The notes under the pieces were generated by a model. That model did not search any database, was not told the origin of the DNA, and saw only the letters and a program-made list of their open reading frames with translations. A stretch of DNA of 64,000 nucleotides. Origin: a virus (taxonomy: Duplodnaviria > Caudoviricetes). The stretch is from IMG/VR virus record IMGVR_UViG_3300046170_000302; one strand, 5' to 3'. Made by a program: the position numbers and the translations under genes. How positions within the stretch are numbered: the stretch's first letter is position 1; every line of letters begins with the position of its first letter. This document shows positions 30,012 to 49,074 of the stretch, one piece after another.

Positions 30012-30917
30012 ATGACTAGGGCTAGAGAACTTGCAAAATTAGCTAATTCTTCAATTTTTAGCGTTGACTCCAGCAACAATGTTGGTATCAATAGTTTAAC
30101 TCCTGACGCTAAACTTGATGTTGTTGGTGTCGTCAGTGCCACTCAATACTTTGGTGATGGTTCAAACCTCACTGGTATTGTAGCTGGAGCTACACTGAAC
30201 GCCTCAAGTGGAACACAGAGACTTGTAGTCACCAGTCAAACTTCTGGGAGTATGACCCAAGCAGCGACCAACGCTGATATTACATACGCTACATCAACTA
30301 ATACACTGAGTGCCACCACATTCAGTGGAGCATTTTCGGGTAATGTGACAGGTAATGTATCAGGAACTGCTGGAGGATTAACTGGAACACCAAGTATTAT
30401 AGTTCAAGATGTTACAGCTGAAACTGTTTCTGTTGCTGGAACAATCTCATATGAAGATGTAACCAACGTAAACTCTGTTGGTCTTGTCACGGCAGGTCTG
30501 GGTGTTAGAATTGGTACGGGTGGTACTGTTGGACCCGAGGGTGTTGGTGTTGTCACATACTTCGGTGATGGTTCACAACTGACAGGTATTGCAGCTGGTA
30601 TTGGAACAGAATCCTCAACACCATCAAACACAGTAGTTACATTGGATCTTTCTAAACAGGATCATAAACTCAGTGTTACAGGTGTCACAACAATCACAGT
30701 ATCTGGTGGAACAGAAGGAGAAAGTCATACAGTAAGGATTATTAACTCTGCTAGTGGTGTAACAGTAGGATTTTCAACTTACTTCTTATTCCCATCAGGG
30801 TCATCACCGTCATTCCCTTCGGCGAGTGGGGCAATTAGCCTTATGTCATTCACGGTAAATAGGGTAGGAGCAGCAGGAACACAACTCCTGGCTGGCGCAT
30901 CACTTAACTTTAGCTGA
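30012..30917 (+). CDS. Fibre stub with C-terminal socket-type domain
   Basis: MTRARELA N-terminus; VGINS..P...LDV; YEDVTNV.SVG motif; ends FPSG..P...SF...LNFS. Confidence 0.65.
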   Translation: MTRARELAKLANSSIFSVDSSNNVGINSLTPDAKLDVVGVVSATQYFGDGSNLTGIVAGATLNASSGTQRLVVTSQTSGSMTQAATNADITYATSTNTLSATTFSGAFSGNVTGNVSGTAGGLTGTPSIIVQDVTAETVSVAGTISYEDVTNVNSVGLVTAGLGVRIGTGGTVGPEGVGVVTYFGDGSQLTGIAAGIGTESSTPSNTVVTLDLSKQDHKLSVTGVTTITVSGGTEGESHTVRIINSASGVTVGFSTYFLFPSGSSPSFPSASGAISLMSFTVNRVGAAGTQLLAGASLNFS

Positions 30918-30930
30918 GGAGATTAGATAA

Positions 30931-33900
30931 ATGGGAGTATTAATTCCTCAGGTAGTATGTGCTACGGAGTCGGGAGCATCAGGTGCTCAGGTTATTGATG
31001 GTAGTTTGAAGTTTGATAAAAGTAAAACTCAGTTTTTAGAAAAAACATTCAGTAGTGCAGGAAACAGAAAAACTTGGACATGGAGTGGATGGTTTAAGCG
31101 TGGCACTATTCCAAGTTCAAATAATTTATGGACTGCTTATAATGGTAGTACCAGTGGATTAGACAATTTTGGGCAAATTTATACTGATGCAGCGGATGGT
31201 AGAATTGTCCTTTATCAAGGAGGCGGCGCACAATATAACAGCGAGGCTAGATTTAGAGACCACTCAGGTTGGTATCATATTGTTATATCTTGTGATGTTA
31301 CTCAATCTACTTATGCCGATCGATTTAAAATTTATGTTAATGGTGTTCTAAACACTTCATCTAGTGGAACTATCGCTCAAAATACCGATTTAGCTTTTAA
31401 TAACAATATTAAACATTACATTGGCACTAGTAACGGTGGTGGTGAACTTTTAGATGGAAATTTAACACAGGTATATTTCATTGATGGACAAGCACTTGGA
31501 CCTGAAAGTTTTGGATTTACTGATCCACTCACAAATACTTGGAGACCTAAGAAATATACTGGTAGTGTTAATACACCAGTATCTTTTTCCAATTTGGCAC
31601 CAATTTTAAATACAAATTCTGATGGTTCTGCAGTAACAAGTGGAACAAGAACAGATTCCAATAATTCAAATTGGATTTTGGGTCTTGCTATGAATACATC
31701 TGCAAACATTTATACTGATTTAAGTCCATCTGATGGAGATGCAACAGATTATAGTAATGTAACTGCAAGTACAACTCAAAGCAAATATTACGGAACAAGT
31801 GCATATTTTAATGGAAGTAATGCAAAATTAATTGTTAATGATAGTAGATTTAATTTCAGTGCCACTAATTTTACAATGGAGACATGGATTTATGTTCCAT
31901 CGACTCCATCGGTATCTCAATTAATATTCTGCAGTAGCAATCCCGATTTAATTGGTAGTTCTTCTACTGCTGGGGTTTTAGTTGGATGGAATAGTAGCAA
32001 TCAATTGTTTGTATATGTTGGTTCTGACAATGTTCCATCAATTACTAACAGTGCTGCAACAGCAGTATCTACTGGAAAGTGGCATCATATTGCAATTGTT
32101 AAAAACGGTGGCACAATAACTCTTTACATTGATGGTAGTGCTTCAGGAACTACTTCATCATCAGTCGGAAATTCTACATCAGGATTTTATGTTGCTCATC
32201 AACCAGCAAATAATAGATGGCTTCAAGCATATTATCAGGACATTCGTGTATATACAACTGCAAAGTATACATCAAACTTTAGTCTACCAGCACCTGCAGG
32301 TGTAAATGGTTTCTACCTCCCAATGGATGGAAACTCACCAATCGGTCATGACCTATCAAATCCAAATCCAGTCAATAATGGAACTGTTTGGAGCAGTTCT
32401 GTAACAGGTACTCCGTATAACGCTAATCGAGGAGGCCCTACACTTTTTGACGGCGGCGACGATTACGCACAATCTGCTTACCCAGGTGTGCTTACTTGGA
32501 CTCCTCCAGGTGGACAAGCATTTTCTACACTTGAACTGGAAGTTTATAGAGATGGATCAAATGCTTTAACTATTGTCCATGCAGGTGGAACTACAGACGT
32601 TAGTAGTCAAATTTCAAACAGTCAATGGTATAAGTGGACTGTTACTGGGATTACGTCTCCAATAACCAGTATTTCCTGGGCGTCTACTAGTAACTCTTCG
32701 TACATAGCCGCAAGAGCCGTATATATTGATGGTGTAGAATTAATTGATGGCATGTATGGTAATGGTTGGACACCAGTAAACTTTGGTGGTTCAGTAGCAC
32801 TTCCTAAAGCAACAGGAGCACTACCAATCCTGAATACTGACGGTGGTGGCAATGTTGCAAGGGTTGGTGTAAGAACTGATGCAAATGCTGCCAATCTTGT
32901 TCTTGCACTTCCACTAGTTGGCAGTAGTGCTGATGTAAGTAATTCAGTTAATAGTGGAAGCACTACAAAGATAATAACTGCTGTTGGTGGTGCTGCCGCA
33001 TCAAGTGCTCAAAGTAATTTTTATGGTGGAAGTTTTGTTTATGATGGTAGTGGAGACGCATTAAAATCAACCTCATCAGGATTAACACCAGGAACATCAG
33101 ATTTTTGTTGTGAAGGGTGGTTTTACTATAATGCATTACCTAGTTCATCTGCATACAGACTACTTGGAAATGTCAATACAAATGGGAATACAACCGATTG
33201 GCAATTAATACACGCAACGAATGGAACTTTGACAATATGGAATGGTAGTGGTCATAGTTCACTTGGAGCAGCTCCATTAAAAGCTGGTTGTTGGAATCAT
33301 ATTGCATATGTTAGGGATGGTGCCACACATAAACTTTATGTAAATGGGGTTCAAATGACTACCACAGTAACAAGAAGTGGTCATGATTTAACATTTAATG
33401 GACTTGACATTGGTGGTAGAAATGATGGTGCAGAATCTTTTAATGGATACATACAGGATGTTAGGTTCTATATTGGCACTACAAAATACACCAGTAACTT
33501 TATACCAGCATCAACCTCCCCAGATATTCTTCCAGACACCCCATCAGGTGTGAGTGGTGGTTCTAAACTTGATAAAGTCACTGATGGTGCTGTTGCTTTT
33601 GATGGTAGTGGTGACTATTTGAGTGTTGGAGATAATGCTGATTTTGAACTTGGATCGGGAGATTTTACGATAGAATTTTATGCTTATCCTAAATCTTTAA
33701 GTTCTGATTCTACGGTAATAAGTAAGTACTCAAGTAGTAATAGAAGTTATTTGGTATGGATGAACTCAACAACGGTTTACTTTACATACTCTACTAACGG
33801 AAGTTCAAACGCTGCCAGTCTTTCAGTAACATACTCTGTTCCATTGAATAAGTGGACTCATTTTGCGATGGTTAGAGACGGAAGCACTCTCAATATGTTT

Positions 33901-36737
33901 ATTGATGGTACGTTGGTATCGAGTCCATCAATTAGTGGAACTTTATATGATGGTTCCTCTAATCTTCAAATTGGTAGACAAGAGGATGGTGCTCAATATT
34001 ATTGGAATGGTTACATTAGTAGTGTAAGACTTGTCAAAGGAACCGCACTATACACTTCTAATTTTACACCGCCAACCAGAGAACTCACTAATGTAACCAA
34101 CACAAAACTACTGTGTTGTCAGTCTAATACTCTTGCTGCTGCTGCTGCGGTTGTTCCAGGTGCTAGTGGTATTAATAATGGAACTGTATGGAGTTCAAAT
34201 TTTTCTGGCAATTCACTCCCATACTCAAATTATGCTTATTCAATACCGAAATGCATTTGACGGAAGGTACTTCCACATTTGCGATGATTGCTGCTAGTAA
34301 TGGTGATATTTTATCAACAATAGTAACTCTTCCAGGACTTACTTCTGGACATAGTGTAGAATTTTATGCTGAAAAGAATACAAATGCAGGAAATTTAACA
34401 TTTAACGGGAGTGTCGTTTCTGGACTAACATCTTCTGCTGGTTGGGTAACTGCTGGAAATGCAAATGGAACATCTGACAACTTTGTCATGAATCCCAATC
34501 CGGGACAATCAACTTCAGATGCTATAAAAATATATGCTGTCAGGGTTAATGGAATTATTCTTGTAGATCTAATTAAAGCAAACGGAAACACATTCCGTGG
34601 AGCAACCACCTTCAACCCATTCACAACTGATATAAATGCAGTTCGTGGACAAGAGACTGGTTATTGTACGATGAACCCTTTAGACAAAGGCAGTACCATT
34701 GTCTTGTCAAATGGAAACTTAGTTTTTTCCAGAAACAGTGGAGGATGGGCCAACTCTGGCGGTCGTGGAACGTTTGGTGTTTCCAGTGGTAAATATTATT
34801 GGGAATTTGTCAAAAATGATTCCGCAGCTTATACGATATTTGGCGTAGCAGTAAGTGAAGCAAGTTTTTCAGAGGATTATGGAGCACCAAACAACGAAAC
34901 TTGGAGTTATATATCTAACAGTGGAAATAAATTAGGTGACAGTTATGGTGGTGCGGGTGCCTCTTATGGCGCAAGTTTTACCGCTGGCGATGCCATTGGT
35001 GTTGCTTTAGACGCTGACACAGGAACTTTATCGTTCTATAAAAATGGTGTAAATCAGGGTATAGCTTTTTCTACATTAAGTGGCAAAACTTTATTTCCTC
35101 ATATTGCTGTTTATGGTGCTACGGACAGTGCTACTACAAACTTTGGTCAAAAACCCTTCAAGTTCCCACCACCAGCAGGTTTCCAACCATTGAACCTTGC
35201 CAATATACGTCCAGAGACTGTGATTACACATCCTGATAAGTATGTTGGGGCAACCTTATGGACTGGTAATGATACTGCAAGAACAATATTAACGGGTAAT
35301 GCTCCAGATTTTGTTTGGATTAAACAAAGAAACAACAATGGTGCAAACATGTTATTTGATAGTGTTAGAGGTGCAACAAAGCGTCTTGTTTCTAACCAAA
35401 ACCTTGCAGAAGGTACTGTGCAAGGTGTGACATCTTTCAATTCAGATGGATTCAACTTGGGGAACGATGCTGATTGTAATTGGGGAGGTAAAACCACTGT
35501 TGGTTGGACTTGGAGAGCTGGTGGAAGCAAAGGCAACTTTAATGTTGATGATGTAGGGTATGAAAATGCCTCTGATGTGGGAATGAATGTTGGTGGTCAG
35601 AATAGTAATGCTTATGATCAAACTCGAACTTGGAGCAATTCAGTAGCCGCTGATGGTGGCAGCACCTTTGTTTCCAACCAAGGCCCAACCAAGATGTTTA
35701 ACGGCGTGGCTGGGATGGGCGTCGAAAAGACTGAACTAACAAGTAACGGCAGCGCAACATTCACCTCTCCAGTTCAGCTATCAGGCAATCTTCGTATGTT
35801 TATTGCTTGTGGATCGAGAGGGTCTTCAGCAACCGGAACTTTTGATTTAAAGCTTGACGGAGTTTCTGTTTTTAACAACAGCACATTTCCCAATAATGCA
35901 GGTGCGTGGGTTGATTTTGGCACTAAAACATGGACTACGTTGCAATTTGGTACAGCAACAGGTGGTAACTGGTTGGGAATTTCTGCGATCGAAGTGGCAG
36001 GCAAACTTTTAGTAGATAATGGAGTGTCTGTTACAAATGCCCCATCAATCGCTAATGCTGGCGCATCTGTTGGAACCAAGCAAGGATTTAGTATTATTAA
36101 ATTTACAAATACTACTAGTGATTCCACTCAATCTCATGGTCTTACACAAAAACCAGATTTTATCATATGGAAGAAAACATCTGGCACCAGTCACTGGGGA
36201 GTTTATCATTCATCTCTTGGTGCGACAAAAGTTTTGTACTTGAACCTTACTAATGCTGCTTCTACTGGTAGTGAATTTTGGAACAATACTGAACCCACTA
36301 ATAGTTTAGTTACAACAAGAGCAGAACCTCATTCCTTTGGTTCTGCTGGAGATACGATTATGTATGTGTGGCACAACGTCCCCGGACTACAGAAATTTGG
36401 ATCCTGTAAAGGTTCGGGAGCATCTGCTGCACCAGATTTCGTTGAATTGGGATTTAAACCATCTATAGTATGGGTGAAGAGAACTGATAACACAGGTAAT
36501 TGGACAGTATGGGATTCTACTAGAAATACATTCAATCCTTCACAAAAACAATTGTTCCCAAATACCAGTGGAACAGAACAAGATTTGTCTGTTGATGCGA
36601 TAGACATATTGAGTAACGGATTTGCTATTAGAAGTTCAAGTTCACTCACCCAAACTGGTTCTCAGACTTACATCTACTGTGCATGGGCAGAAGCACCAAC
36701 AGTTAACTTGTTTGGAGCCCAATCCAATGCAAGATAA
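30931..36737 (+). CDS. Giant (~1930 aa) LamG/SPRY multi-domain adhesin-like protein; two +1 frameshifts at ~34250
   Basis: Several LamG-like repeats (FT.E.W...WHHIA.V...LYIDG...QDIRV), SPRY (SSGKYYWEF...GVALDADTG.LSFYKNG), C-terminal PDFVWIK...YCAWAEAP domain; NAFDGST restored on joining. Confidence 0.75.
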
Positions 36738-36748
36738 ATAACTAAAAA
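36734..36748 (+). promoter_or_regulatory. T4-type late promoter (extended form)
   Basis: ATAAATAACTAAAAA overlapping the upstream stop codon. Confidence 0.75.
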
Positions 36749-36757
36749 GATATCGCC

Positions 36758-37454
36758 ATGGCTCTTGGTAGACCCTATATCACTAACAAATAATGTAGCA
36801 TCTAAGATCATCAGGCTTCTAGCTACCAACAACCAAACTGTCTTCACAGTTCCAGGTGGGTATCGTATTAACCAGATTGGTGTTTTCAGAAACGGTGTTA
36901 GATTATCTAATAATAGTGATTTCACAGCACTTGATGGTTCAACTGTAACTCTTGTCAATGCTGCACAAACAAATGATGAAGTCCTGTTTGAAATTCAGGA
37001 TGATTTTAGAGTAGCTGATGCTATTGTATCAGCAGCTTCCACACAAACAATCAGTGGTGACTTAACTGTTACTGGAACTGTTTATGGTGCTATTGTTGGA
37101 GTTAACTCTGGTGGTATTGCAATTGGTGAAGCTAAAACACTAAACTTCATTGGTAGTGGTAACACCTTCGCACAGAACGGTGATACTATTGATATCTCCA
37201 TCTCTGGTGGTAGTGGAGGAGGTGGTCTAGGAACCGCCATCAACTACAGTGATGAAACACCCACACCATTCAGTTACATTGACTCACATGTAACTGTAAC
37301 TAGTAACCTACTGATTGATACAGAGAACGCTGGATTAACCACATCCTATGTTGTATCAGTTGTTCCAAATGTTGAAGTTGCTTCTGGTGTTGCACTTACC
37401 GTTGGAACTGGTAAGACTATGATTATTGATATCCTACAGATCGGAGACCTCTGA
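36758..37454 (+). CDS. Short fibre protein; true start likely ATG 36758 with a +1 frameshift at ~36774
   Basis: MALGRP-ISLTNN on removing one base; VFRNGVRL...DFTA domain like 24120. Confidence 0.6.
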
Positions 37455-37759
37455 TGTCAAAAATAATTACAAATAATATCACTCCCCGTAGTGGTAGTAG
37501 TGTAGGACTTACTGGTGACTTAGTAGCCAGTGGAAGTATTACTGGAACTACAGGAACTTTTAGTGGTTCTGTATCAGTTGGTGGCACCATCACCTATGAA
37601 GATGTAACTAACGTCGATTCAGTCGGTATCATTACTGCTCGTAGTGGTATTGTTGTTACAGGTGTTGTTACCGCTACTAGTTTTGCTGGTGATGGATCAG
37701 CACTTACAGGTGTTGAGAGTTGGAATCAATTTGACACCTGGCTATATGGTGGCGGTTAA
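37454..37759 (+). CDS. Fibre stub
   Basis: MSKIITNNITPRSG; YEDVTNVDSVG; TATSFAGDGSALTG; ends FDTWLYGGG. Confidence 0.65.
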   Translation: MSKIITNNITPRSGSSVGLTGDLVASGSITGTTGTFSGSVSVGGTITYEDVTNVDSVGIITARSGIVVTGVVTATSFAGDGSALTGVESWNQFDTWLYGGG

Positions 37760-37764
37760 TCTTA

Positions 37765-37779
37765 CTAAATAACTAAAAA
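37765..37779 (+). promoter_or_regulatory. T4-type late promoter (extended form)
   Basis: CTAAATAACTAAAAA before ATG 37788. Confidence 0.7.
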
Positions 37780-37787
37780 GAAAAGTC

Positions 37788-38150
37788 ATGGCACTGGAAA
37801 GGGGAAAACTTACTAATGTGGTACAGGTCGCAGCAGGTGCTACTGTTGCTATGATTACTTGTGCCTCTTCTAAGAAAGTTTATATTAAATCAATCATTTG
37901 TCATGCATCTGGAACTGGAATAGCAACTGCTACCGCCCAGGTTTATTTTGTTCCTAATGGTGGAAGTGTTTCTTCAACAAATAAAATCTTTGATGTTGAT
38001 GTGGTATCAGGAGAAACAGTATTAATCGAACCATCATATCCTCTTGTATTGGATACAACTGGTGATAGTCTGCGAGTTGGAACAGGAAATGTTACTGGAA
38101 TTGCAGCAACTCACGTAAACTTCATCATTACTGGCGATAAGGAGGCTTGA
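37788..38150 (+). CDS. Small fibre adaptor-like protein (class 2)
   Basis: 120 aa; similar to 25030..25434. Confidence 0.55.
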   Translation: MALERGKLTNVVQVAAGATVAMITCASSKKVYIKSIICHASGTGIATATAQVYFVPNGGSVSSTNKIFDVDVVSGETVLIEPSYPLVLDTTGDSLRVGTGNVTGIAATHVNFIITGDKEA

Positions 38151-38153
38151 TAC

Positions 38154-39242
38154 ATGGCACCATTTAAGTCATCACTTGCAAGAAGTGCAGGAAAACTCCT
38201 TGGTGTCTTTAGACAAGCAGATTTATCATTAAGAGGTGCTACTCAGATTAGTAGACGGATAGTACTACCTATGACTACTGCTAGTGGTGGAACTACATAT
38301 ACCATCGGAGATTATAAGTATCATATCTATCAACAACCACAGACTGGAGGAACTCTTAATGTTTCTACTGCTGGTGAAGCAGAGATACTTGTTTTATCTG
38401 GCGGTGGTTCTGGTGCTCCTGACCAAATGGGTGGAGGTGGTGGAGGAGCAATTGTTTTTACAAACAATCCTGTAGATTTAGAAGCAATTAATTATTCTAT
38501 CACCGTTGGTAGTGGCGGTGCATACTCACCATATCCTCAATATGGTGCAGGACAAAGAGGTCAAAATTCTGTATTTGGATCATCTCCACAAAATATCTAT
38601 CTAATTGCTTTAGGTGGTGGTGGAGCAAAGAACCCTGTTTCACTTCCTCAATCATACGCAGATAACGCTGGATGTGGTGGAGGGGGTGGTCCTGGTGTTA
38701 ATGGATTTCCAGCATCTCAACCTGGTCAATCACAGACAGCACCTACTCCAGTAGTTAGTCAGGGATTTCAGGGAGGAGCACACCCTGGAAATGCTGGTAC
38801 TAACACAAGCGGTTCTGGTGGTGGTGGCGGTGGTGCTGGTACGGTAGGAAGACATGGTGGTCCACCAGCTCCAGCACCAACTAGAGGAGTTGGTGGTGAT
38901 GGATACCAAGTTCCATCAGATTTCTTGCCTACAAGTGCTCCAGGTGCTATGGCAACCACTTTGGGTGGAATTCCTACTGGTAATGGTGCTTGGAGATATT
39001 TTGGTGGCGGTGGTGGAGGATCAGATAATAACAACAACGGTGGAACATCAAGAAACTTTGGTGCTCCCGGTGGATTAGGTAATCCTGGTGGAAGAGGAGC
39101 GCAAGACCCTGGACCAGGGGGAGTTGGAGGAAGTCCTGGAACTGCTCATAGGGCAGGTGGAGGTGGTGGTGGATCCACACATAGTGGTATTGGTGGTGCC
39201 GGTGGGTCTGGAATAGTTATGGTAAGATACAAGTATCAGTAG
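38154..39242 (+). CDS. Gly-rich adhesin-like protein (single domain)
   Basis: ASGG...YKYHIY...LVLSGGGSG...GSGIVMVRY; Pro-rich loops. Confidence 0.7.
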   Translation: MAPFKSSLARSAGKLLGVFRQADLSLRGATQISRRIVLPMTTASGGTTYTIGDYKYHIYQQPQTGGTLNVSTAGEAEILVLSGGGSGAPDQMGGGGGGAIVFTNNPVDLEAINYSITVGSGGAYSPYPQYGAGQRGQNSVFGSSPQNIYLIALGGGGAKNPVSLPQSYADNAGCGGGGGPGVNGFPASQPGQSQTAPTPVVSQGFQGGAHPGNAGTNTSGSGGGGGGAGTVGRHGGPPAPAPTRGVGGDGYQVPSDFLPTSAPGAMATTLGGIPTGNGAWRYFGGGGGGSDNNNNGGTSRNFGAPGGLGNPGGRGAQDPGPGGVGGSPGTAHRAGGGGGGSTHSGIGGAGGSGIVMVRYKYQ

Positions 39243-39897
39243 TAATATTTTTTTGAAGACCACTTCTAGTAAAATATAAACTATTAAATTTTGTCGGCAA
39301 ACAATTAAAGGAAAGAGAAAGTCTTCCCTCTTTGTTTGTTGGCAAATAACTGTGCTTTAAATAAGAAGGCCATAATAAAATAGTTCCATTAGATACTTCT
39401 GTTTGTATTTGTGTATTGTGAAATGCATATCCCAATTTGTTTTCTTCTTGTGATGGATTGTCAACCATGATATTTCCTGTTGAAGAAGAGTTTTCATAAG
39501 GACTATGGAAAACTAAAAAATCTTCACCAACGTCAATAAACAAAGTTCCAGATATGACAGAGTTGCAGTGATTGTGAACGTATTGCCAGGATCCTTTTTT
39601 AGCATAGTTAAACCATGCATCAGTTACTTCTAGATCTGTGATGTGATTCATCACATTTTTATATACAAAATTTGAATATTTTTTAATCTTTTCCTTCAAC
39701 CAGAGTAATCTACGATACTCATCAAAAACTTCTCTATAATGAATGAGAGATTGGCATTCATCATTAATATACTTGCCATTATACTCTTTTCCTCTTATAT
39801 TGGAAAAGAAAAAAGATTTTACTTTTTTATTTTCATCTTCAGTAATCTGCATAGATACTACAGGAACTGGAAAAAACGAGGCAACTTGGTGTTCCAT
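39217..39897 (-). CDS. Putative 2OG-Fe(II) oxygenase (TIGR02466-like); only credible minus-strand gene in the window
   Basis: AWFN...HNHCNSVISG...ILLWPSYLKHS...RLSLSFN. Confidence 0.8.
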   Translation of the reverse strand: MEHQVASFFPVPVVSMQITEDENKKVKSFFFSNIRGKEYNGKYINDECQSLIHYREVFDEYRRLLWLKEKIKKYSNFVYKNVMNHITDLEVTDAWFNYAKKGSWQYVHNHCNSVISGTLFIDVGEDFLVFHSPYENSSSTGNIMVDNPSQEENKLGYAFHNTQIQTEVSNGTILLWPSYLKHSYLPTNKEGRLSLSFNCLPTKFNSLYFTRSGLQKNITTDTCILP

Positions 39898-39924
39898 TCT
39901 TAAAATTATTTTCTATATTATATC

Positions 39925-40476
39925 ATGAACTTAAAAAATGATAAAGTTATATCTGTAAAGGAAAAACATAATATATTAATTTGTCAATATCCATTTTGGG
40001 AATCTCTTAATCCAAAACTTCACGTCCTTATAAAAAATTTTCCAGATGAATATCAAAAAAATACAAATGTAAAAGCAAAAATGACTCACTATTGTGTCAT
40101 AAATCAAGAATTTGAAAAAATTGGAAGATGGGTATATCAAAAATTACCATCTATTTGCCCTCAAGGTTTAAATACAACATCTAAATTTAAATTAATAGAT
40201 ATTTGGGGTGCTTTATATAATGAAAATGACTATGCGACTTCTCATCAACATAGACCTTTAGCGTACTCATTTGTTTATTTTGTCAATACTCCAAAGAATT
40301 CTTCTCCTTTAGTATTTAACTCATCAAATACTAAAATAAATCCAGAATCAGGAAAATGTGTTATTTTTCCTTCTTGGTTAGTTCATAGTGTTCCAAAAAA
40401 TAAATCTAAAGAAAGAAGTGTGATAGCAGGAAATTTTGCATGGATGTCAGAAGATACCCCATATAGATTTAATTGA
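39925..40476 (+). CDS. Putative 2OG-Fe(II) oxygenase (TIGR02466-like)
   Basis: WGALY...HQHRP...SFVYFV...VIFPSWLVHSV...RSVIAGN. Confidence 0.8.
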   Translation: MNLKNDKVISVKEKHNILICQYPFWESLNPKLHVLIKNFPDEYQKNTNVKAKMTHYCVINQEFEKIGRWVYQKLPSICPQGLNTTSKFKLIDIWGALYNENDYATSHQHRPLAYSFVYFVNTPKNSSPLVFNSSNTKINPESGKCVIFPSWLVHSVPKNKSKERSVIAGNFAWMSEDTPYRFN

Positions 40477-40501
40477 CATCCCAATAAAACTGATATATAG
40501 T
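40473..40501 (+). promoter_or_regulatory. Sigma70-type promoter
   Basis: TTGACA (40473-78), 17 nt, TATAGT (40496-501). Confidence 0.75.
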
Positions 40502-40524
40502 ACAACTGAATACATTATAGGTAT

Positions 40525-40834: not shown

Positions 40835-41236
40835 ATGGCTGCTCCAAATATAGTAAACGTTACAACTATCACAGGGGTAACCACTTTTCATGCTGGTATC
40901 GCTGTAACCACTGGAGGAAGAGGTTCTCTAGGTATCACGACTGTGGTGTCAAATGCCGCATCAAGTGGTAAGGTATTAAAGATTAATTCACTGGTTGCAG
41001 CAGGTATAGCAGCAACCACTGGAGTTACTCTTCAGTATTTTAACAATATTAATCATGTATCTGCGAGTAGTACAGTATCAATTGGTATGACATTATCAGT
41101 ACCAACATTCTCCACACTTGCACTCATTACCAAAGACAACTCAGTGTATCTGGAAGAAAATACTTCACTTGGTATTTTTGCACAACCAGCAACAGGAACT
41201 ATTGACGTAGTTTGTTCATACGAAGAAATTAGTTAA
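40835..41236 (+). CDS. Small fibre adaptor-like protein (class 1)
   Basis: 133 aa MAAPNIVNV...YLEEN.SL...IDVVCSYEEIS; ATAAATA at 40806. Confidence 0.55.
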   Translation: MAAPNIVNVTTITGVTTFHAGIAVTTGGRGSLGITTVVSNAASSGKVLKINSLVAAGIAATTGVTLQYFNNINHVSASSTVSIGMTLSVPTFSTLALITKDNSVYLEENTSLGIFAQPATGTIDVVCSYEEIS

Positions 41237-41248
41237 GGAGGATAAACC

Positions 41249-43294
41249 ATGGGATATCTAGGCAGACGCATAGGTTTATCACAAGACAACGGAGATTCTA
41301 ATCCAGGAGCATCAGGTGGTGCTGTTGGTGGTGGAATATTAGATTTATTTGCACATGGATATTTTGAGAGACAAGGAGATCTTTACAATGCTCCTGGTTC
41401 TTCAGCACTAGTAGGTTTAACAGCAACTGGTGGTGCGATTAGTGATTATATTTCTGGTACTGATGTTTACAGAGCACATGTCTTTACTTCATCAGGAACT
41501 TTTGATGTAAGTGCTTTAACAGATAATGTTCCAAGTGGGAATAGTGTTGAGTATCTTGTAGTTGCTGGCGGAGGTGGTGGTGGTGGATCATTTGGTGGTG
41601 CCGGAGGTGCTGGTGGTTTAAGAACTAATTTAACAGGTCATCCATTAACTGGTGCAGCATTTCCAGTATCAGTATCTTCATATACGGTAACTGTTGGAGC
41701 TGGTGGTGCTGGTAACCCAGATCGTAGTAGAGGAGCAAAAGGAGTCGATTCAGTTTTTGGATCTATAACATCAACTGGTGGTGGTTTTGGTGGAGGAAAC
41801 GACAGTGGTGTACACCCAGCAGGACCTGGTGGTTCTGGTGGTTCTGGTGGTTTATCTGGTGGAGCAGGAACACCAGGAAATGGAAATGATCCACCAGTTT
41901 CTCCGCCACAAGGAAATAACGGCGGTACATCAATTGATGCTGGTACATATGCTGGAAACTGCACTGGTGGTGGCGGTGGTGCTGGAGCAGTAGGCACAAA
42001 TGCTTCTTCCCCAGGAGTTGGAGGAGCAGGTGGTGCTGGTGTTCAGGTTGCAATTGCAGGACCAGCTGCTGATACAACTGGTGTTGGAGCAATAAACCCA
42101 GGACCAGGACAATATCAATGGTTTGCAGGTGGTGGCGGTGGTCACAGTGGAGAAGTATCAGGACGAACTAGATCTTCTGGTGGTGTAGGTGGCGGAGGAC
42201 AAGGTGGAATCAGTAATGGTGCTGTCCTAGGACCCAGAGTTGGATTACCTGCACAATATGCTACAGGTGGTGGCGGTGGTGCTTCTGGTGGTGGTAATCC
42301 TAGTCCTGGTGGTTCTGGTGGTTCCGGTATTGTAGTTGTAAGGTATAAAATAGCATCAGTAGCAACTACAAAAGCAACTGGTGGTGCTATTAGTTTCTAT
42401 AGTAATAAGACTATTCATGCCTTTAGAAGTTCTGGTACTTTTACCGCCCCAGGCACTTTTGATGAAACAGTAGAGTATGTTGTAGTTGGTGGTGGTGGCG
42501 GAGGTGGTGGTACTGCCCCCGGACCCAACACTGCTCATGGTGGCGGTGGTGGTGGCGCAGGTGCATATAGAACAGCTTCTATTCCTCTTGCGGGTCCATT
42601 TACTGCTCCAGTTACTGTTGGTTCATCTGGGTCTGGTGGAGTTGGGTCAAACAATGGCGCAGACGGTGGAACAACTACTTTTGCAGCACCAACGTCAATC
42701 GTGTCCCCTGGTGGTGGTGGCGGTGGTTATGGACAACCTGGTGCAAATGTTAATGGAACATCATCTCCTGGTGGATCTGGTGGTGGTGCTACAAGAATAA
42801 TTGGTTCTGCTCCTGGTTCAGGATCTTATGGTAATCCTGGTGGTTACCGAACACCAGCTGTTAATGACCAGGGTGCTGGTGGTGGCGGTGGTGCTGGTGG
42901 TGCTGGTGGCAACTATGGTGGTCCTGCACCTTATCACACAGGATATGGTGGACTTGGTGTCCGACTCCCCGCAACATTTCAATTTGATGGTAATTTAGGA
43001 TACCCTGGACCGGGAAGCACTCATTCTTGGGTTGCTGGCGGTGGCGGTGGCGGTGCTGGCGACAATGCCAATGGTCCTGTAACTAATGCATCAGGTGGTC
43101 CGGGTGGTGCAGGTAGTTCGAGTGCAGGTCCGTTCGCAGGTGCTGGTGCCGGAGGAAGTCATATAAACAATGGAGGATCAAACGCTGAAGTTAATTCTGG
43201 ATCTGGTGGTGGAGGAGATGGTCCTGGTCCCGCATCTCCCAAGACAGGTTCTAATGGTGGTTCCGGTATTGTCCTCATTGCATATCCTACCTAA
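41249..43294 (+). CDS. Gly-rich adhesin-like protein with two tandem Gly-rich domains
   Basis: Same motifs as 25437 and 27377; ends GSGIVLIAYPT; N-terminal GYLGR. Confidence 0.7.
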   Translation: MGYLGRRIGLSQDNGDSNPGASGGAVGGGILDLFAHGYFERQGDLYNAPGSSALVGLTATGGAISDYISGTDVYRAHVFTSSGTFDVSALTDNVPSGNSVEYLVVAGGGGGGGSFGGAGGAGGLRTNLTGHPLTGAAFPVSVSSYTVTVGAGGAGNPDRSRGAKGVDSVFGSITSTGGGFGGGNDSGVHPAGPGGSGGSGGLSGGAGTPGNGNDPPVSPPQGNNGGTSIDAGTYAGNCTGGGGGAGAVGTNASSPGVGGAGGAGVQVAIAGPAADTTGVGAINPGPGQYQWFAGGGGGHSGEVSGRTRSSGGVGGGGQGGISNGAVLGPRVGLPAQYATGGGGGASGGGNPSPGGSGGSGIVVVRYKIASVATTKATGGAISFYSNKTIHAFRSSGTFTAPGTFDETVEYVVVGGGGGGGGTAPGPNTAHGGGGGGAGAYRTASIPLAGPFTAPVTVGSSGSGGVGSNNGADGGTTTFAAPTSIVSPGGGGGGYGQPGANVNGTSSPGGSGGGATRIIGSAPGSGSYGNPGGYRTPAVNDQGAGGGGGAGGAGGNYGGPAPYHTGYGGLGVRLPATFQFDGNLGYPGPGSTHSWVAGGGGGGAGDNANGPVTNASGGPGGAGSSSAGPFAGAGAGGSHINNGGSNAEVNSGSGGGGDGPGPASPKTGSNGGSGIVLIAYPT

Positions 43295-43305
43295 ATAACT
43301 AAAAA
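43291..43305 (+). promoter_or_regulatory. T4-type late promoter (extended form)
   Basis: CTAAATAACTAAAAA overlapping the stop codon; ATG at 43315. Confidence 0.7.
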
Positions 43306-43314
43306 GTAGATAAG

Positions 43315-44042
43315 ATGTCACAGCTCTACGTTAACAATATTAAGAGTCGAGTGGGTGGAGCTGTTAGTTTCACTCAGGGCATCATTAGTGCTGGAGCAAC
43401 CTTCAGTGGGAAATGTATCGGTTGGTGGGAACACTGACCGTATGAGATGTAACCAATATTGACTCAGTTGGTGTTGTAACTGCTAGAACAGGAATTAAAG
43501 TTCTCGCAGGTGGTATTAATGCAGTTGGTGTTGTAACTGCTACTAGTTTTTCAGGTGATGGATCAAGTCTTTCTGGTGTTGTTTCTGGTATTGAAGTTAA
43601 ATCTGGCGGATCATCAGTAGGTACATCACTTACAGCAATTAATTTCTCTGGTGCTACAGCTAGTACTGGGTCTGCTGGAATTACAACGATTACTATTGCT
43701 GCTGCAGGTATCAACACAACAGCATCATCACCATCAGCAAATACAGTTGTTACACTAAATTTAAGCACAGCACAACATCATGACCTGACACTAACAGCAG
43801 GTATTACAACAATTACTTGTAGTGGTGGTAGTTTTGGTGATTCGCACTCAGTTGTGATAAGTCAACCATCATCAGGTATTGCTACTGTTGGGTTTAGCAC
43901 ATTCTTCTTATTCCCATCAGGGTCAACACCAAGTATGTCAACAGGAAGTGGTAAGGTAGATTTAGTTTCATTTGTAGTGAAACGAGTAGGCGCAGGAGGG
44001 ACACAGTTACTAGCATCTGCTGGTCTCAACTACAGCAACTGA
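43315..44042 (+). CDS. Fibre stub with socket-type C-terminal domain; local frameshifts at ~43410-43445
   Basis: MSQLYVNNIKSR start; ...DVTNIDSVG...; C-terminus closely resembles that of 30012 (FLFPSGS.PS...SF.V.RVGA.GTQLLA). Confidence 0.65.
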
Positions 44043-44055
44043 GGAGGATAGATAA

Positions 44056-47000
44056 ATGGGAGTATTAATTCCGAGTTTACAGTCAGGACTTCTTAATCAG
44101 TCTAGTGCTCAAATAGTTGATGGTAGTTTGAAGTTTAATGAAACATCAGGTAGTTATCTAACTAGAACTCCAAGCTCTAATGGAAATAGAAAAACTTGGA
44201 CTTGGAGTTGCTGGTGTAAGATTGCAAAACTTCCAGTAAGTGGAACAAATGGTGATAGAACTTTGTTTTCCGCAGTTGATACTTCAAATGGTGGTGATGA
44301 CGATGCTATAAGATTTATTAGATCTGGAATAACTGGAGGGCAGAGTTTATATTGGAGTTCCTCTGAGTATAATGTAGGGGATGAAGAAGCAATATACACA
44401 AATGCGGTTCTACGCGATCCTAATGCGTTTTATCATGTAGTTCTTATAAAAGATACAACACAATCAAGTTTGGCTAATGGTCAAATGAGAATGTATATTA
44501 ATGGAGTAGAACAATCATTAGTTGAATCAAATGCTATTTCGCAAAATGCAGAAAGAGCTATAAATTCACAAATCCCACATGCCATTGGTGATCATTATGG
44601 TCAAGATAGACCATGGGATGGAATGATGACTCAGGTCTATCTAATAGACGGATTATCACTTGGTCCTGGATATTTTGGATTCACTGATCCACTCACAAAT
44701 ACTTGGAGACCTAAAAAGTTTAAAGCAGAGGGAACGACTTTAAATGATGGTACTGTTTGGAGTTCTAAGGTAACAGGAGCAAATAATCCAGCAAATGCAT
44801 TTGATGGAAGTCTATCCTCAAATATGGATAATAATGGTTCTGCTGGAACACCTATTGTTCTAACGGCATCTTTCACAAATGTAACCTCATTTAGATACTA
44901 TACAAGTAATAGCAGTGCTCATGATGTTTCATTTAGTGGAGGAAGTGTAACAACTGATGCGGCATCATCTGGCTGGAGAACTGTTTCTGCACCTTCATCA
45001 ATAACTTCAATATCATGGATTCATTCAAATGAACCGGCTGCGTATGTTGTAATAGAGGCAATTGAAATTAATGGAGAAATTTTAAGAGATAGCACTACAA
45101 CAAACCTTGCCTTTGGAACAAATGGTTTCTACCTCCCAATGGATGGAAACTCACCAATTGGAGAAGATAAATCTGGTAGAGGAAACAACTGGACACCATC
45201 AGGATTTGGTGGTTCTTTAGAACTTGGTAATCCAAATGTATCTGGTGCAAAACCAATCCTGAATACTGATGGTGGTGGTAATGTTGCAAGACCTGGTGTA
45301 TTTGGTAGTGAAGTAGGAGCATATTATGCAGTTACTGTTGCATCGGTAGGTGGTGGAAACAGATATCACTTTGATGGAGTAGATAGACCTAATCCCACAC
45401 TAATTCGTGGTGCAACATATACCTTCGACCAATCAGATAGTTCTAACTCTGGTCATCCACTCAGATTTGCCACAGCTGCTGATGCTGCTGGAAGTTCACA
45501 ATATACTGATGGTGTTGTAACAAATGGAACACCTGGTTCTGCTGGTGCATATACCAAGATTACAGTTCCACATAATGCACCAAATACCTTACATTATTAT
45601 TGCACAAATCACGGTGGTATGGGAAGCTCTACTTCTCAAACCACTGATGAAACCAAAGCAGACCCTTATGCCTGGAAGAATACTCTTGCACTTCCATTAG
45701 TTGGTAGTGCTAATGATGTAAGTAATTCTGTTAATAGTGGAAGCACGACAAAGACAATTACTGTTTCTGGTCCGGTTGCCTCAACTGTTCAAAGTAACTT
45801 TTATAGTGGTAGTTTTGTATTTGATGGTTCTAATGATAGAATAATTACTGCAACTGATGCATCTCTGGAATTTGATGGAGATTTTACTTTCGAAGCATGG
45901 GCTAATAGAACTGCAACTGGAAGAGAGTGTTTATTTGCACAATGGCTTAACTCTTCAAGTGCTAATAGGTGGAGACTTGAATTGGATAAAACCAGCGGTA
46001 AGGTTACTTTTGTTGATGGAGAGAGCAATGAACAATCATTTACTTATACAAGCGGTGTAGGAACATGGAATCACTGGGCTATCACCCGTAGTGGTAATAC
46101 TGCATATATTTTTGAAAATGGAAATCAGATTGGGACATGGACCAGTACTACAAATCTTGGAAACGGAGGAGATTTTACTGTAGGAAATACTGAAGATGGA
46201 GGGCTTTGGTGGCAGGGATATATACAGGATGTAAGAGCTTATAAAGGAGTAGCAAAATACACCAGTAACTTTGTAGTTCCCGCAACCTCCCCAGACGTTC
46301 TTCCAGACACCCCATCAGGTGTGAGTGGTAGTTCTAAACTTACTAAAGTCATTGATGGTGCTGTGCATTTTGATGGAACTGGTGACTATTTGAGTCTTGC
46401 TGATAGTGATGATATTGACTTGACTGGAAGTATTAGTTTTACAGTTGAGGCATTTATCTACAAAAAGGATAGTGCAGAGGATCAAATTTTTGAATTTAGA
46501 GGTGGAGGATCTACAGGATGGACTTTATATACCACAACAAGTAATACTCTTCAGATATATGACTCTGTTGCAAATACTCAAGTTGGAACATCAACGGGAA
46601 AGATCATTCCAAACGCATGGAATCATATTGCTCTGACCAAGAATGGTAGTGGATCTAACAATTGTGACTTTTGGATTAATGGAGTAAATTCTGGAACATT
46701 TAGTTTAGCTTCCTTTGCAACAACAGATAGTACTGGACTTCGTATTGGTGCATCTAAAGATACTTCGGCATTCTTTACTGGGTTTATGAGTAATGTTCGT
46801 ATCCTCAAAGGAACCGCACTTTATACCTCAAACTTCACACCATCAACAACACCACTCACTAATGTAACCAACACAAAACTCCTGTGTTGCCAGTCTAATA
46901 CTTCTGCTAATTTAACAGGAGTATCACCAGCAACTTTCAGTAATGATGGAAGAACATATAGTTCAGGTGTAACATTCTCTCCAGGAGTATTGAGTTCAAC

Positions 47001-49074
47001 TAGAGGTGGTGATAAAGCATTTAATGGCACAATCTCTGATAATGCCTCAGCATCTACTAATAATCCTTCACTTTTGACTGCATCTTTTTCAGCAAACCTT
47101 ACTGGAGTTACATCTTTAAAAATATACAGTGGTTCTAATAGTTCTAATGCTTATATTAATGGTGCATCAGGTAGTACTGTTTCAATTACAGCAAACAACT
47201 GGACTGACTTAACATCATTAGCATCTGGTGCAAGTGGAACTATCAGTAGTATATCGGTTGTAACTGCTGGAGATAATGCACAGTTAGCTGCTGTAGAAGT
47301 TAATGGTTGTATTCTTGTTGATGGACTTGTGGGAGAGGCATTGGTAAGAGTAGGAGACACAGCAGCAACCAACTTCAACCCATTCAACACTGATATAAAC
47401 ACAGTTCGTGGACAAGAGACTGATTATTGCACTATAAATCCATTAGATGGATATGTTTCCACGAAAGATGGAAACCTGGAGACATCCACAAGTAGTGGAT
47501 GGCAGAGTATTAGAGCAACACTTGGAATGAATTCTGGTAAGTTCTATTGGGAAACTCAAAACAACCAAGATGCTTCAGCAATCCTTGGAATTGCTGATTC
47601 GGAAGCAACAGGGTTTGTGGATGGAAGTATTTTTGGCAGTACTGGTCATGGAGGCGGAGATGCAAATCCTGCATATACTTGGGCAGGTGCGAACTACTAC
47701 TTTAATGCAACTACAGCAGGCACCGGACTTTCAAACCATGTTCCTTCAGATGTTGTTCAGTATGCGTTTGATGCTGATAGTGGTAAACTTTGGTTTGGAA
47801 GAAATGGTGTTTGGTACAGTTCCTCTTGGGGAACCACTGGAAACCCTGCGGGTGGTTCTAACGCAACAGTGAGTGGCATAAACACTACTAAGACATATCT
47901 TGCCTGTGCTTCCTTTTATAATGGTTCAGGTAAATTTAACTTTGGACAAAAACCCTTCAAGTTCCCACCACCTGATGGTTTCTCACCACTGAATGCTGCT
48001 AATGTTCTTCCAGAGACTGTAATTACACGTCCTGATAAGTATGTTGGGGCAACAATTTGGGATGGAACAGGATCAGCAAGAAGCATAGATATTGGTACAC
48101 AACCAGACCTAGTTTGGGTTAAAGTAAGAAATCATACTTATTATCATTATTTGGTTGATTCTGTCAGAGGAGCAGGAAAAGAATTAAACTCAAACACAAC
48201 CGACGATGAATATACGGACACCAGCAATATATCTGCATTTAACGCCAACGGATTTAGTTTGGGAACTGGGGCTGGTGTAAACCAATCTGGTGGAAAAAAT
48301 TATGTGGCATGGTGCTGGAAAGCTGGTGGAAACAAAAACACCTTTAATGTTGATGATGTAGGTTATGCAAGTGCTGCTGCGGCAGGATTAGATGGTGGAA
48401 ATATTAATCCTAACCGTGCATCTGTTGGGACCAAGCAAGGTTTCAGTATCATAAGATATACTGGGACCGATGCAACATCAAATACTTTTTCTCACGGATT
48501 GACCCAAAAACCAGATTTTGCAATATTTAAGAATACATCTCAAGATGGAGACGATTGGATTGTATATCACTCCTCTATAGGAGCAACAAAGAGACTAAAA
48601 TTAAACTCATCTAATGCAGCTGATTCTCAAACCTCTCAATTCAATGATACCGAACCAACATCGTCAGTGTTCACCATTGGAACCTATGATAATATTAATA
48701 AACTGAATAATAATTATATCAGTTACATATGGCACAATGTCCCCGGACTACAGAAATTTGGTTCCGTTGAAACGGTTAGTGACGTTGGGTATGCTGAGAT
48801 AGGATTTAGACCAGCACTTGTAATCTTTAAAAATATAGATGCCAGTTCGAGTTGGTCCATTAGAGATAATAAAAGAGTCCCGTATAATCCCAATGACATA
48901 TTATTGAGGGCAGATACAGCCGGTGAAGACTTTACAAGCAGTGGAAAAGTAGATTTTCTCTCTAATGGGTTTAAGATTCAAGGTAGTGGTTTTGGCAGTT
49001 ATACATATATCTACGCAGCATGGGCAGAAGCACCAGCATTTAACTTGTATGGCGCACAGTCAAACGCCAGATAA
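44056..49074 (+). CDS. Giant (1672 aa) LamG/SPRY adhesin-like protein with an inserted cupredoxin-like domain
   Basis: Paralog of 30931 (MGVLIP start, AWAEAP..NL.GAQSNAR end); GHPL...YYCTNHGGM insert. Confidence 0.78.
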   Translation: MGVLIPSLQSGLLNQSSAQIVDGSLKFNETSGSYLTRTPSSNGNRKTWTWSCWCKIAKLPVSGTNGDRTLFSAVDTSNGGDDDAIRFIRSGITGGQSLYWSSSEYNVGDEEAIYTNAVLRDPNAFYHVVLIKDTTQSSLANGQMRMYINGVEQSLVESNAISQNAERAINSQIPHAIGDHYGQDRPWDGMMTQVYLIDGLSLGPGYFGFTDPLTNTWRPKKFKAEGTTLNDGTVWSSKVTGANNPANAFDGSLSSNMDNNGSAGTPIVLTASFTNVTSFRYYTSNSSAHDVSFSGGSVTTDAASSGWRTVSAPSSITSISWIHSNEPAAYVVIEAIEINGEILRDSTTTNLAFGTNGFYLPMDGNSPIGEDKSGRGNNWTPSGFGGSLELGNPNVSGAKPILNTDGGGNVARPGVFGSEVGAYYAVTVASVGGGNRYHFDGVDRPNPTLIRGATYTFDQSDSSNSGHPLRFATAADAAGSSQYTDGVVTNGTPGSAGAYTKITVPHNAPNTLHYYCTNHGGMGSSTSQTTDETKADPYAWKNTLALPLVGSANDVSNSVNSGSTTKTITVSGPVASTVQSNFYSGSFVFDGSNDRIITATDASLEFDGDFTFEAWANRTATGRECLFAQWLNSSSANRWRLELDKTSGKVTFVDGESNEQSFTYTSGVGTWNHWAITRSGNTAYIFENGNQIGTWTSTTNLGNGGDFTVGNTEDGGLWWQGYIQDVRAYKGVAKYTSNFVVPATSPDVLPDTPSGVSGSSKLTKVIDGAVHFDGTGDYLSLADSDDIDLTGSISFTVEAFIYKKDSAEDQIFEFRGGGSTGWTLYTTTSNTLQIYDSVANTQVGTSTGKIIPNAWNHIALTKNGSGSNNCDFWINGVNSGTFSLASFATTDSTGLRIGASKDTSAFFTGFMSNVRILKGTALYTSNFTPSTTPLTNVTNTKLLCCQSNTSANLTGVSPATFSNDGRTYSSGVTFSPGVLSSTRGGDKAFNGTISDNASASTNNPSLLTASFSANLTGVTSLKIYSGSNSSNAYINGASGSTVSITANNWTDLTSLASGASGTISSISVVTAGDNAQLAAVEVNGCILVDGLVGEALVRVGDTAATNFNPFNTDINTVRGQETDYCTINPLDGYVSTKDGNLETSTSSGWQSIRATLGMNSGKFYWETQNNQDASAILGIADSEATGFVDGSIFGSTGHGGGDANPAYTWAGANYYFNATTAGTGLSNHVPSDVVQYAFDADSGKLWFGRNGVWYSSSWGTTGNPAGGSNATVSGINTTKTYLACASFYNGSGKFNFGQKPFKFPPPDGFSPLNAANVLPETVITRPDKYVGATIWDGTGSARSIDIGTQPDLVWVKVRNHTYYHYLVDSVRGAGKELNSNTTDDEYTDTSNISAFNANGFSLGTGAGVNQSGGKNYVAWCWKAGGNKNTFNVDDVGYASAAAAGLDGGNINPNRASVGTKQGFSIIRYTGTDATSNTFSHGLTQKPDFAIFKNTSQDGDDWIVYHSSIGATKRLKLNSSNAADSQTSQFNDTEPTSSVFTIGTYDNINKLNNNYISYIWHNVPGLQKFGSVETVSDVGYAEIGFRPALVIFKNIDASSSWSIRDNKRVPYNPNDILLRADTAGEDFTSSGKVDFLSNGFKIQGSGFGSYTYIYAAWAEAPAFNLYGAQSNAR

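Follow-up and report, generated by a model that had tools for sequence, protein, structure and literature searches.

How does a phage gene keep short stretches of its DNA almost unchanged while the protein domains between them are only distantly similar or missing altogether? The question is raised by two giant genes in a 64,000-nucleotide (nt) stretch of viral DNA, IMG/VR record IMGVR_UViG_3300046170_000302 (Duplodnaviria; Caudoviricetes), which is called the window below and to whose numbering all positions refer. Gene 1 (30931..36737, one open reading frame (ORF) after removal of two extra bases) and gene 2 (44056..49074, an intact ORF), both on the plus strand, encode proteins of 1,934 and 1,672 amino acids (aa), respectively, and share a ladder of short, near-identical blocks that we call anchors. 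The explanation that we favour, with a probability of roughly 0.7 and on the strength of sequence comparisons, is that homologous recombination at these conserved joints exchanges whole binding domains between phages. The comparison sequences (IMG/VR contigs, Logan contigs and metagenome contigs) are nearly all short-read metagenome assemblies.

A blastn comparison of the two genes gave 13 high-scoring segment pairs (HSPs) between 30782-36737 and 43904-49074, in strictly colinear order and none out of place. Exact repeats of at least 30 bases are not expected by chance between two stretches of 5-6 kb. An earlier note on this DNA had listed ten colinear anchor pairs, A0 to A9, and both the colinearity and the ten identities proved exact; within each of the ten pairs the codon phase agrees between the genes, and the conserved boxes number 12 per gene. 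In the following the position in gene 1 is given first, and all boxes are on the plus strand. A0 (30915..30947 and 44040..44072; 31/33) contains the stop of the upstream gene, a Shine-Dalgarno-like GGAG and the first 6 codons, MGVLIP, and its second copy lies before and at the start of gene 2. A1 (FGFTDPLTNTWRPKK; 31509..31553 and 44673..44717) is the linker after the N-terminal domain; its core (31519-50 and 44683-714) is identical at 32/32 positions, the identity is 97.6% over 42 nt, and A1 was found at 23 sites in related contigs. A2 (NGFYLPMDGNSPIG; 32304..32345 and 45120..45161) is identical at 39/39 positions and A3 (PILNTDGGGNVA; 32823..32861 and 45252..45290) at 37/39. A4 (TSPDILPDTPSGVSGGSKL; 33512..33570 and 46283..46341; 56/59, 14/14 identical codons) is a Pro/Ser/Gly linker, A5 (LTNVTNTKLLCCQSNT; 34083..34131 and 46854..46902; 47/49, 12/14 identical codons) is the linker after a LamG domain, and A6 (ATTFNPFTTDINAVRGQETGY; 34601..34666 and 47364..47429; 60/66) is a linker together with the lead-in to SPRY. 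A7 (NFGQKPFKFPP; 35139..35173 and 47938..47972; 34/35) covers the last SPRY strand and a PPP linker, A8 (PETVITHPDKYVGA; 35210..35254 and 48009..48053; 43/45) the start of DUF7483, and A9 (WHNVPGLQKF; 36369..36400 and 48730..48761; 31/32) a site between DUF7483 profile positions ~220 and ~235. The boxes beyond these ten are N0 (GNRKTWTWSGWFK, with GNRKTWTW; 31060-31098 and 44182-44220), within the N-terminal LamG_3 domain; B3 (LALPLVGS..DVSNSVNSGSTTK; 32901-33048 and 45684-45828; 82% over 148 nt, 11/13 identical codons), the leader of the following LamG module; and the C-terminal E (YIYCAWAEAP..GAQSNAR, then the stop; 36666-36737 and 49003-49074; 80.6% over 72 nt).

The earlier note had taken the anchors for inter-domain linkers. 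This stands for most of them, which sit in linkers or terminal strands; N0 and A9 fall inside Pfam domains, and perhaps E does as well, being at or just past the end of DUF7483. The second part of that description, i.e. that the intervening domains are distantly similar or present in one gene only, is fully borne out, as corresponding modules of the two genes show 29-51% aa identity over aligned residues or lack a counterpart. Pfam searches of whole proteins and single modules give gene 1 the order N-terminal LamG_3, LamG_3, a type that we call AFDG, LamG_3, LamG_3, AFDG, SPRY and DUF7483, the last with an insert of about 150 aa, while gene 2 has N-terminal LamG_3, AFDG, a cupredoxin-like insert with LamG_3, LamG_3, AFDG, SPRY and DUF7483. 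The matches exceed the curated cut-offs for LamG_3 (241.7 bits), SPRY (71.0) and DUF7483 (259.3) in gene 1 and for DUF7483 (268.5) and LamG_3 (136.9) in gene 2; the gene 2 SPRY domain scores 20.4-23.1, under the cut-off of 26.3, yet it aligns to the SPRY domain of gene 1. Searched singly, each inter-anchor module with a match holds one whole domain (LamG_3 at profile positions 1-142 of 151, SPRY, or DUF7483). Slots may also be empty: the distance from A2 to A3 is 90 nt in gene 2, while gene 1, with 477 nt, has an entire domain inserted there.

Four to five modules, namely those of the AFDG type and the cupredoxin-like insert of gene 2, have no Pfam match. The AFDG modules gave Atlas feature matches of 0.75-0.84 to F5_F8_type_C/CBM32 clusters, which are to be read as leads only, and AlphaFold2 (AF2) models them with a confidence score (pLDDT) of just 50-65. 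They probably have a discoidin-like (F5/8 type C / CBM32) fold, and the other insert probably a cupredoxin-like one, while searches of PDB sequences and the Atlas together with AF2 did not settle either fold; the PDB sequence matches were limited to an S-layer LamG-like protein and the SPRY domain of DDX1. The insert, about 115 aa after A3 (45300-45660), has a motif GHP...YYCTNHGGM that resembles a cupredoxin-type metal site, and it gave no match in Pfam or among PDB sequences; the first 90 aa of its module are 92% identical in G001, the nearest record (IMG/VR UViG_3300046171_000184). For the A4-A8 part of gene 2, an AF2 model built on 15 homologous ORFs from independent contigs shows three beta domains with A4, A5, A6 and the tail of A7 with A8 all in low-confidence coil between them: A4 at residues 1-28 (pLDDT <50), A5 in segment 181-260 between LamG and the next domain, A6 in segment 346-380, and A7 as the last SPRY strand, followed by coil from residue 559. 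Genes 1 and 2 probably encode beads-on-a-string virion proteins, fibres or receptor-binding proteins, as homologues annotated as 'tail fiber' or 'virion structural protein' indicate, and the fold families suggest that the domains bind ligands.

The earlier note had proposed to look at the silent sites, and over-conservation of the anchors held between the paralogues, within the population and in comparison with backbone genes. Where the residues of genes 1 and 2 are identical, 56.5% of the codons are identical as well, against 44% expected from codon usage at saturation, and these codons are clustered (11 runs of at least 8 against 2.9 expected; permutation, P=0.0002). In blocks defined by the peptide the anchors keep 9/10 to 14/14 codons (10/11, 9/10, 14/14, 12/14). 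Equally conserved neighbouring peptides are at background codon identity, i.e. KGTALYTSNFTPPT, which adjoins A5, at 5/13, GTKQGFSI at 4/8 and NLFGAQSNAR at 3/9, and for this reason amino-acid constraint alone is insufficient for the anchors. A third giant paralogue (gene 3; 52152-55526, plus strand), with a LamG-like N-terminus, DUF7483, SPRY and again DUF7483 by Pfam, serves as an internal control: blastn-short against genes 1 and 2 gave no matches, so that it shares no DNA anchors with them, and its codon identity at conserved residues is that of the background.

The same question was put to the population by scanning IMG/VR with fully degenerate back-translations, so that copies were ascertained by peptide only. 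The scan yielded 6 contigs with A2 (NGFYLPMDGN), which makes 8 copies with the two in the window, 24 copies of A7 (NFGQKPFKFPP) and 62 copies of A5 (TNTKLLCCQ). A2 has a same-codon fraction of 0.84 and A7 one of 0.81, where 0.49-0.50 would be expected, and even rare codons are kept: CCC, which makes up 6% of the Pro codons of the genome, occurs in 23/24 copies and CTC (8% of Leu codons) in 7/8. The flanks of these copies are unalignable (MAFFT column profile), and the upstream flanks of A2 differ. The wider A5 set has many codon combinations (0.50 vs 0.45 expected) with lineage-specific consensus sequences, and because other lineages encode TNTKLLCCQ with other codons there is no universal coding constraint on this peptide. 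In contigs that share the anchors, the backbone genes are just 66-77% identical to the window, and the conserved runs of the giant genes keep more identical codons than those of the backbone (0.70 vs 0.59, in 27/29 contigs, Wilcoxon P=2.6e-8). Here too ascertainment was at the protein level, by runs of at least 8 identical residues in tblastn HSPs; the effect is smaller than with the biased blastn ascertainment and has the same direction. At least 100 contigs from metagenomes of many projects contain the exact 26-nt core of A7, and we regard the anchors, as far as these sequences tell, as a population-wide scaffold that is not private to this genome.

For the conservation at silent sites, the chief competing explanation is codon-level selection. 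In its full form it holds that purifying selection alone is at work: the joints would be structurally critical peptides, e.g. of a fibre's oligomeric core, their silent sites would be held by translational accuracy or by pausing at domain borders, and the modules would have diverged in place. The anchors are indeed the most conserved peptides, they are enriched in C-ending and rare codons, and they include a PPP motif of the stall type and a conserved Cys-Cys; moreover, linkers modelled with low pLDDT are conserved all the same, which suggests a role in the assembled state. The background codon identity of equally conserved peptides beside the anchors speaks against it, as does the use of different codons for TNTKLLCCQ elsewhere. 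It would also be hard to bring modules down to 22-42% aa identity by divergence in place next to anchors of about 90% or more nt identity, and selection of this kind leaves unexplained the patterns described next, i.e. modules that are 94-100% identical between phages with 65-70% identical backbones, tracts that end at anchors, optional slots and one-sided identity across A7-A8. As a full account we consider it unlikely.

If domains are exchanged at the joints, then relatives should carry different modules between the same anchors, as the earlier note had also suggested, and alternative, extra or missing modules were found in them, with tracts of 90-97% identity that end at anchors and that occur in phages which have otherwise diverged. 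The anchors occur in the same order in more than 30 IMG/VR contigs, and their spacing is multimodal, corresponding to a module that is absent, present or larger. The distances are 25-39, 402-481 or 620-761 nt for A1-A2, 84-90 nt (relatives and gene 2) or 477 nt (gene 1) for A2-A3, 63 or 417 nt for A3-B3, 56-63, 423-491 or 681-695 nt for A5-A6, and 655-682 or 1114-1234 nt for A8-A9, whereas the A7-A8 distance, seen in 15 contigs, is constant at 36-50 nt. Among Logan contigs from four studies of seawater there are module-less A1-A2 and A5-A6 forms and a replaced A6-A7 module; in a gene 2 variant from runs X1 and X4, position 44719 is joined to 45112 via 11 other letters and the module is gone. 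A joint 31556->45112 had the appearance of a recombinant between genes 1 and 2 and was rejected, as A1 is identical in both genes and the joint is the same variant as 44719->45112.

The comparison with G001 (48.5 kb) is instructive. This record is syntenic with the window, with about 96% identity over window 1-25556 and 34% shared words, and despite this backbone identity its gene 1 and gene 2 modules are just 27-57% aa identical to those of the window. Its tracts of high identity to the window stop at 31098 (the end of N0, 93%), at 36400 (the end of A9, 88%) and at 44219 (the end of N0 in gene 2, 93%), and they start at 45120, exactly where A2 of gene 2 begins (90.5%), and at 36648, near E (97%). 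G001 (L028:10535-11261) and contig L104 (1123-1848) have a LamG module of 727 nt in common that extends from B3 to A4 with 97% identity, while the one clearly backbone HSP between the two is 64.5% identical and the other flanking HSPs 68-80%; on this sequence evidence the module is a clean case of what appears to be recent horizontal transfer of a single domain. A further case of tract ends was found at A5/A6. Where different contigs share tracts with 90% identity or more, 31% of the tract ends lie no more than 15 nt from an anchor, as compared to 12% for random positions (maximum 22% in 500 simulations). The two sides of a joint are discordant as well. The 77 distinct copies of the exact A7 core fall into 68 clusters by the 320 nt upstream and 66 clusters by the 360 nt beyond A8, and in k-mer-prefiltered global alignments a pair that agrees to 0.85 or more on one side of A7-A8 is nearly always unrelated across the joint. 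Many pairs have one flank at 96-100% identity and the opposite one at about 60% (e.g. 0.98/0.65, 1.00/0.69 and 0.59/0.98, upstream value first). A Mantel test on adjacent modules gave r=0.02, which fits free shuffling and is uninformative, all modules being near saturation (22-42% aa).

Since the data are metagenomic throughout, the mosaics in the window and its relatives might be assembler chimeras that jumped between strains or paralogues at shared k-mers. The window and G001 do carry many 1-nt indel errors, and Logan contigs, assembled with k=31, break at anchors. Against this, the anchors (up to 66 nt) do not reach the length of the reads or of the largest k in common assemblers. All of the 14 A4-A8 (or A5-A8) stretches from independent contigs that were aligned are open reading frames with complete domains; a further stretch, L053, shorter and with two stop codons, was excluded from the alignment. 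The A5 and A8 junctions of gene 1 are spanned by independent contigs, and an assembler cannot create anchor sequences with silent-site conservation in at least 100 contigs of many projects. We judge an artefact of this kind to be very unlikely.

A further possibility is concerted evolution within one genome, where repeated short-tract gene conversion, and not a population pool, would keep the anchors of genes 1 and 2 alike. In favour of this, a distance of 13 kb separates the two copies, which run in the same direction and have exact repeats of 32-39 nt in common; in A7 both carry a minority TTT codon that occurs in 6/24 copies. Yet the same anchors are found in dozens of other contigs, the window copies are near the population consensus without shared private variants, the third paralogue shows no conversion, and no hybrid of genes 1 and 2 was found among the Logan seawater contigs. 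As the source of the ladder, gene conversion is quite unlikely; it is compatible with recombination at the joints and does not exclude shuffling.

In the proposed exchange of domains between phages, each globular module would sit between short joints that a large pool of related phages has in common as near-identical DNA. General homologous recombination between co-infecting phages, and possibly also between paralogous loci, would cross over in the joints, so that whole domains could be replaced, inserted or deleted in frame with the scaffold left intact. The anchor length, 30-66 nt, is of the order of the minimal homology of recombination systems. Frequent exchange via the joints, together with strong constraint on the protein, would keep the joint DNA shallowly diverged, while the modules would be old and highly diverse alleles, presumably maintained by host-range selection. 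The joints of the paralogues would be alike since both are near the population consensus, and private gene conversion between genes 1 and 2 would not be needed. There are several points that weigh against this reading. No recombination event was seen directly, short-read assembly can give rise to chimeras where sequences are shared, and in the Logan contigs the joints have short sides of 22-30 nt. The window has single-base errors, and it is the sole source for the order of modules across A1 and A2, which are exact repeats. The missing hybrid of genes 1 and 2 counts here as well, and so does the reliance on homologue annotations for protein function. Finally, the anchors are enriched in C-ending codons (28-30 observed vs 16 expected of 125), which could be codon-level selection. 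Of the module-shuffling that the earlier note had proposed within and between genomes, exchange between genomes is thus well indicated by the sequences; the part within a genome found no support in hybrids, and a built-in scheme, i.e. selection for shufflability, is something that we infer.

One may go a step further and speculate that the joints are a maintained, cross-lineage 'connector standard': DNA words, partly of rare codons, that stay identical across phages with backbones of about 65-75% identity, and possibly across marine and other waters. This is a tentative idea, which we hold to be possible rather than probable. If it were true, there would be a pan-viral library of many lectin-like domains pluggable in frame into any of about ten fibre slots, and there would be second-order selection for the evolvability of host range.

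It is useful to compare the ladder with known systems for varying phage adhesins. In the tail-fibre and adhesin genes gp37/gp38 of T-even phages, conserved motifs alternate with hypervariable segments, according to the part of Trojet et al. (2011, PMC3157838) that cites Tetart et al. (1996, 1998). The likeness is twofold. Firstly, conserved boxes alternate with variable segments, here as a ladder of 12 boxes in proteins whose virion role is suggested by homologue annotations. Secondly, breakpoints lie at conserved motifs, and here tract ends are enriched at anchors in metagenome assemblies. The differences are that the variable units here are whole globular domains of 130-330 aa in optional slots, as opposed to loops in one domain or fibrous repeats, and that each gene has 12 joints and each genome two such paralogous genes; any effect on host range is putative here. 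No homology to gp37/gp38 was detected, as Pfam gives just LamG_3, Laminin_G, SPRY and DUF7483 and no tail-fibre or adhesin family. The PeSL cassettes of T4-type phages are short repeated conserved DNA elements that recombine with each other and thereby shuffle the intervening modules (Arbiol et al. 2010, PMC2839356). They are intergenic promoter-terminator cassettes that move whole genes, whereas the anchors are in-frame coding DNA that would move domains within a gene: all but A0 lie in frame inside ORFs, and only A0, with its stop, ribosome-binding site and start, is partly regulatory.

Lectin-like folds on phage fibres are classical targets of diversity-generating retroelements (DGRs), and targeted hypermutation of this or a similar kind could in principle diversify modules between fixed flanks. 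The likeness lies in ligand-binding folds on phage fibres that are diversified on a fixed scaffold; DGRs do so by reverse transcription and adenine mutagenesis. Here the repeat mismatches are of all kinds and not adenine-specific, there is no pair of template and variable repeats, the repeats being colinear paralogous anchors, and the modules differ by indels, whole folds and presence or absence, not by point changes. No reverse transcriptase was seen among the scanned ORFs, in a scan that covered small ORFs and the remainder of the genome incompletely. The probability of hypermutation is close to nil. The readings as a DGR, a homing endonuclease or a regulatory cassette were all rejected, as their defining parts are lacking.

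Among cultured phages, SPRY/LamG genes annotated as 'tail fiber' or 'virion structural protein' (Methylophilales phage MEP301, HTVC011P, S-SRM01, Syn1) have the same families and peptide motifs. At the DNA level their share of the anchors amounts to one or two short segments, 81-85% identical (SynMITS9220M01, Syn1/S-RIM44), and the ladder itself is never present; a stretch of 69 nt close to A5 is shared by Syn1 and S-RIM44. A megablast search of cultured phages with gene 1 gave no match, and a distant blastn search with gene 2 gave just scraps of 69-200 nt. The phages with the ladder in common have no cultured representative so far. In the literature we found no description of an anchor ladder in LamG/SPRY/DUF7483 proteins of marine phages. 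The principle, recombination at conserved motifs, is known; what is new is the scale of whole domains, the many slots, the occurrence across a population and the over-conservation of the joints at silent sites.

Host range is the central unknown for abundant uncultured marine phages, and this locus provides an unusually clean map of a possible way of re-programming it: the scaffold is constant and offers about ten slots, each for one whole, putatively binding, domain, with joints conserved as DNA in at least 100 environmental contigs. Recombination at conserved motifs, as in gp37/38 of T-even phages, becomes testable at population scale. The anchors are ready handles for polymerase chain reaction or long reads in cataloguing the domain library in seawater, and they suggest natural in-frame junctions for chimeric receptor-binding proteins in laboratory phage-host systems. 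Such genes are also assembly hazards, as k-mer contigs break at every anchor.

The earlier note had spoken of two giant genes, which is confirmed with one correction: as it stands, the window shows gene 1 as two ORFs (30931..34260 and 34188..36737). Reading in three frames places two +1 shifts 17 nt apart, at ~34248 and ~34265 on the plus strand, and in contigs of runs X1, X3 and X4, which represent three independent studies of seawater, a base is missing at 34248/49 and another at 34264-66. Deletion of both extra bases restores the single ORF of gene 1, which then reads ...YSIPNAFDGGTSTF... at this point; the insertions are most likely assembly errors. They are not isolated. The window and G001 differ by 37 single-base indels in 20 kb, and several ORFs of the window are interrupted exactly at an extra base. 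Extra single bases that are missing from independent contigs and/or G001 are at 34248, 34265, 36776, 43408 and 49475, and more extra bases are at 16974, 17425, 17652, 18827, 19124 and 21009-21013; the genes cut up in this way include a long tail-fibre gene (15357-20174) and a phrog_24848 gene (20171-22548). Because several genes are split by such bases, the ORF map of the window is not reliable at face value.

The window is the tail and fibre region of its phage, with PHROG matches to the baseplate hub/tail lysozyme, the baseplate wedge and tail-fibre families. By sequence, the phage is identified as an uncultured marine myovirus and a distant relative of the T4-like cyanophages; its baseplate hub protein is 36-40% identical to the counterparts in Synechococcus phages S-B05 and S-B43 and Prochlorococcus phage P-TIM68. 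The protein of gene 3 is 33-43% aa identical, over more than 90% of the length, to 'tail fiber', SPRY and virion structural proteins of Methylophilales, Roseobacter, Pelagibacter and cyanobacterial phages, and the family therefore spans podo- and myovirus lineages. Directly upstream of gene 1 is a small fibre-like gene of 301 aa (30012..30917, plus strand, from the ORF list). Its homologue before gene 2 (43398..44052, plus strand; tblastn match 43398-44036, 45% aa) is broken by a single extra base near 43408 that is missing in G001 and run X1, and a further homologue at 51576-51713 (tblastn) precedes giant gene 3. About 40% of the sampled words of gene 1 also occur in runs X10, X12 and X17, labelled 'cave metagenome', besides many seawater runs (seawater samples with this phage come from 12 studies); the cave matches may come from an anchialine or marine cave, or merely from shared modules.

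Other repeats were noted nearby. The Gly_rich_2 (PF21722) genes at 25437-28951, 38154-39242 and 41249-43294 have a ladder of their own, with 25-100-nt near-identical blocks between paralogues, e.g. 25535-25636 / 27493-27594 / 41417-41496, and this looks like the same phenomenon in another family of fibre-tip genes. Two 2OG-Fe(II) oxygenase genes on opposite strands (39217-40476) lie between the two fibre cassettes, and a 33-nt repeat (40487-40519 / 49089-49121, 97%) follows both the second oxygenase gene and gene 2. Short near-identical repeats are also found between or inside small genes (61013-61041 / 63479-63507, 37569-37620 / 51625-51676 and 30422-30482 / 51623-51683), and some of the intergenic ones may be regulatory cassettes of the PeSL kind.

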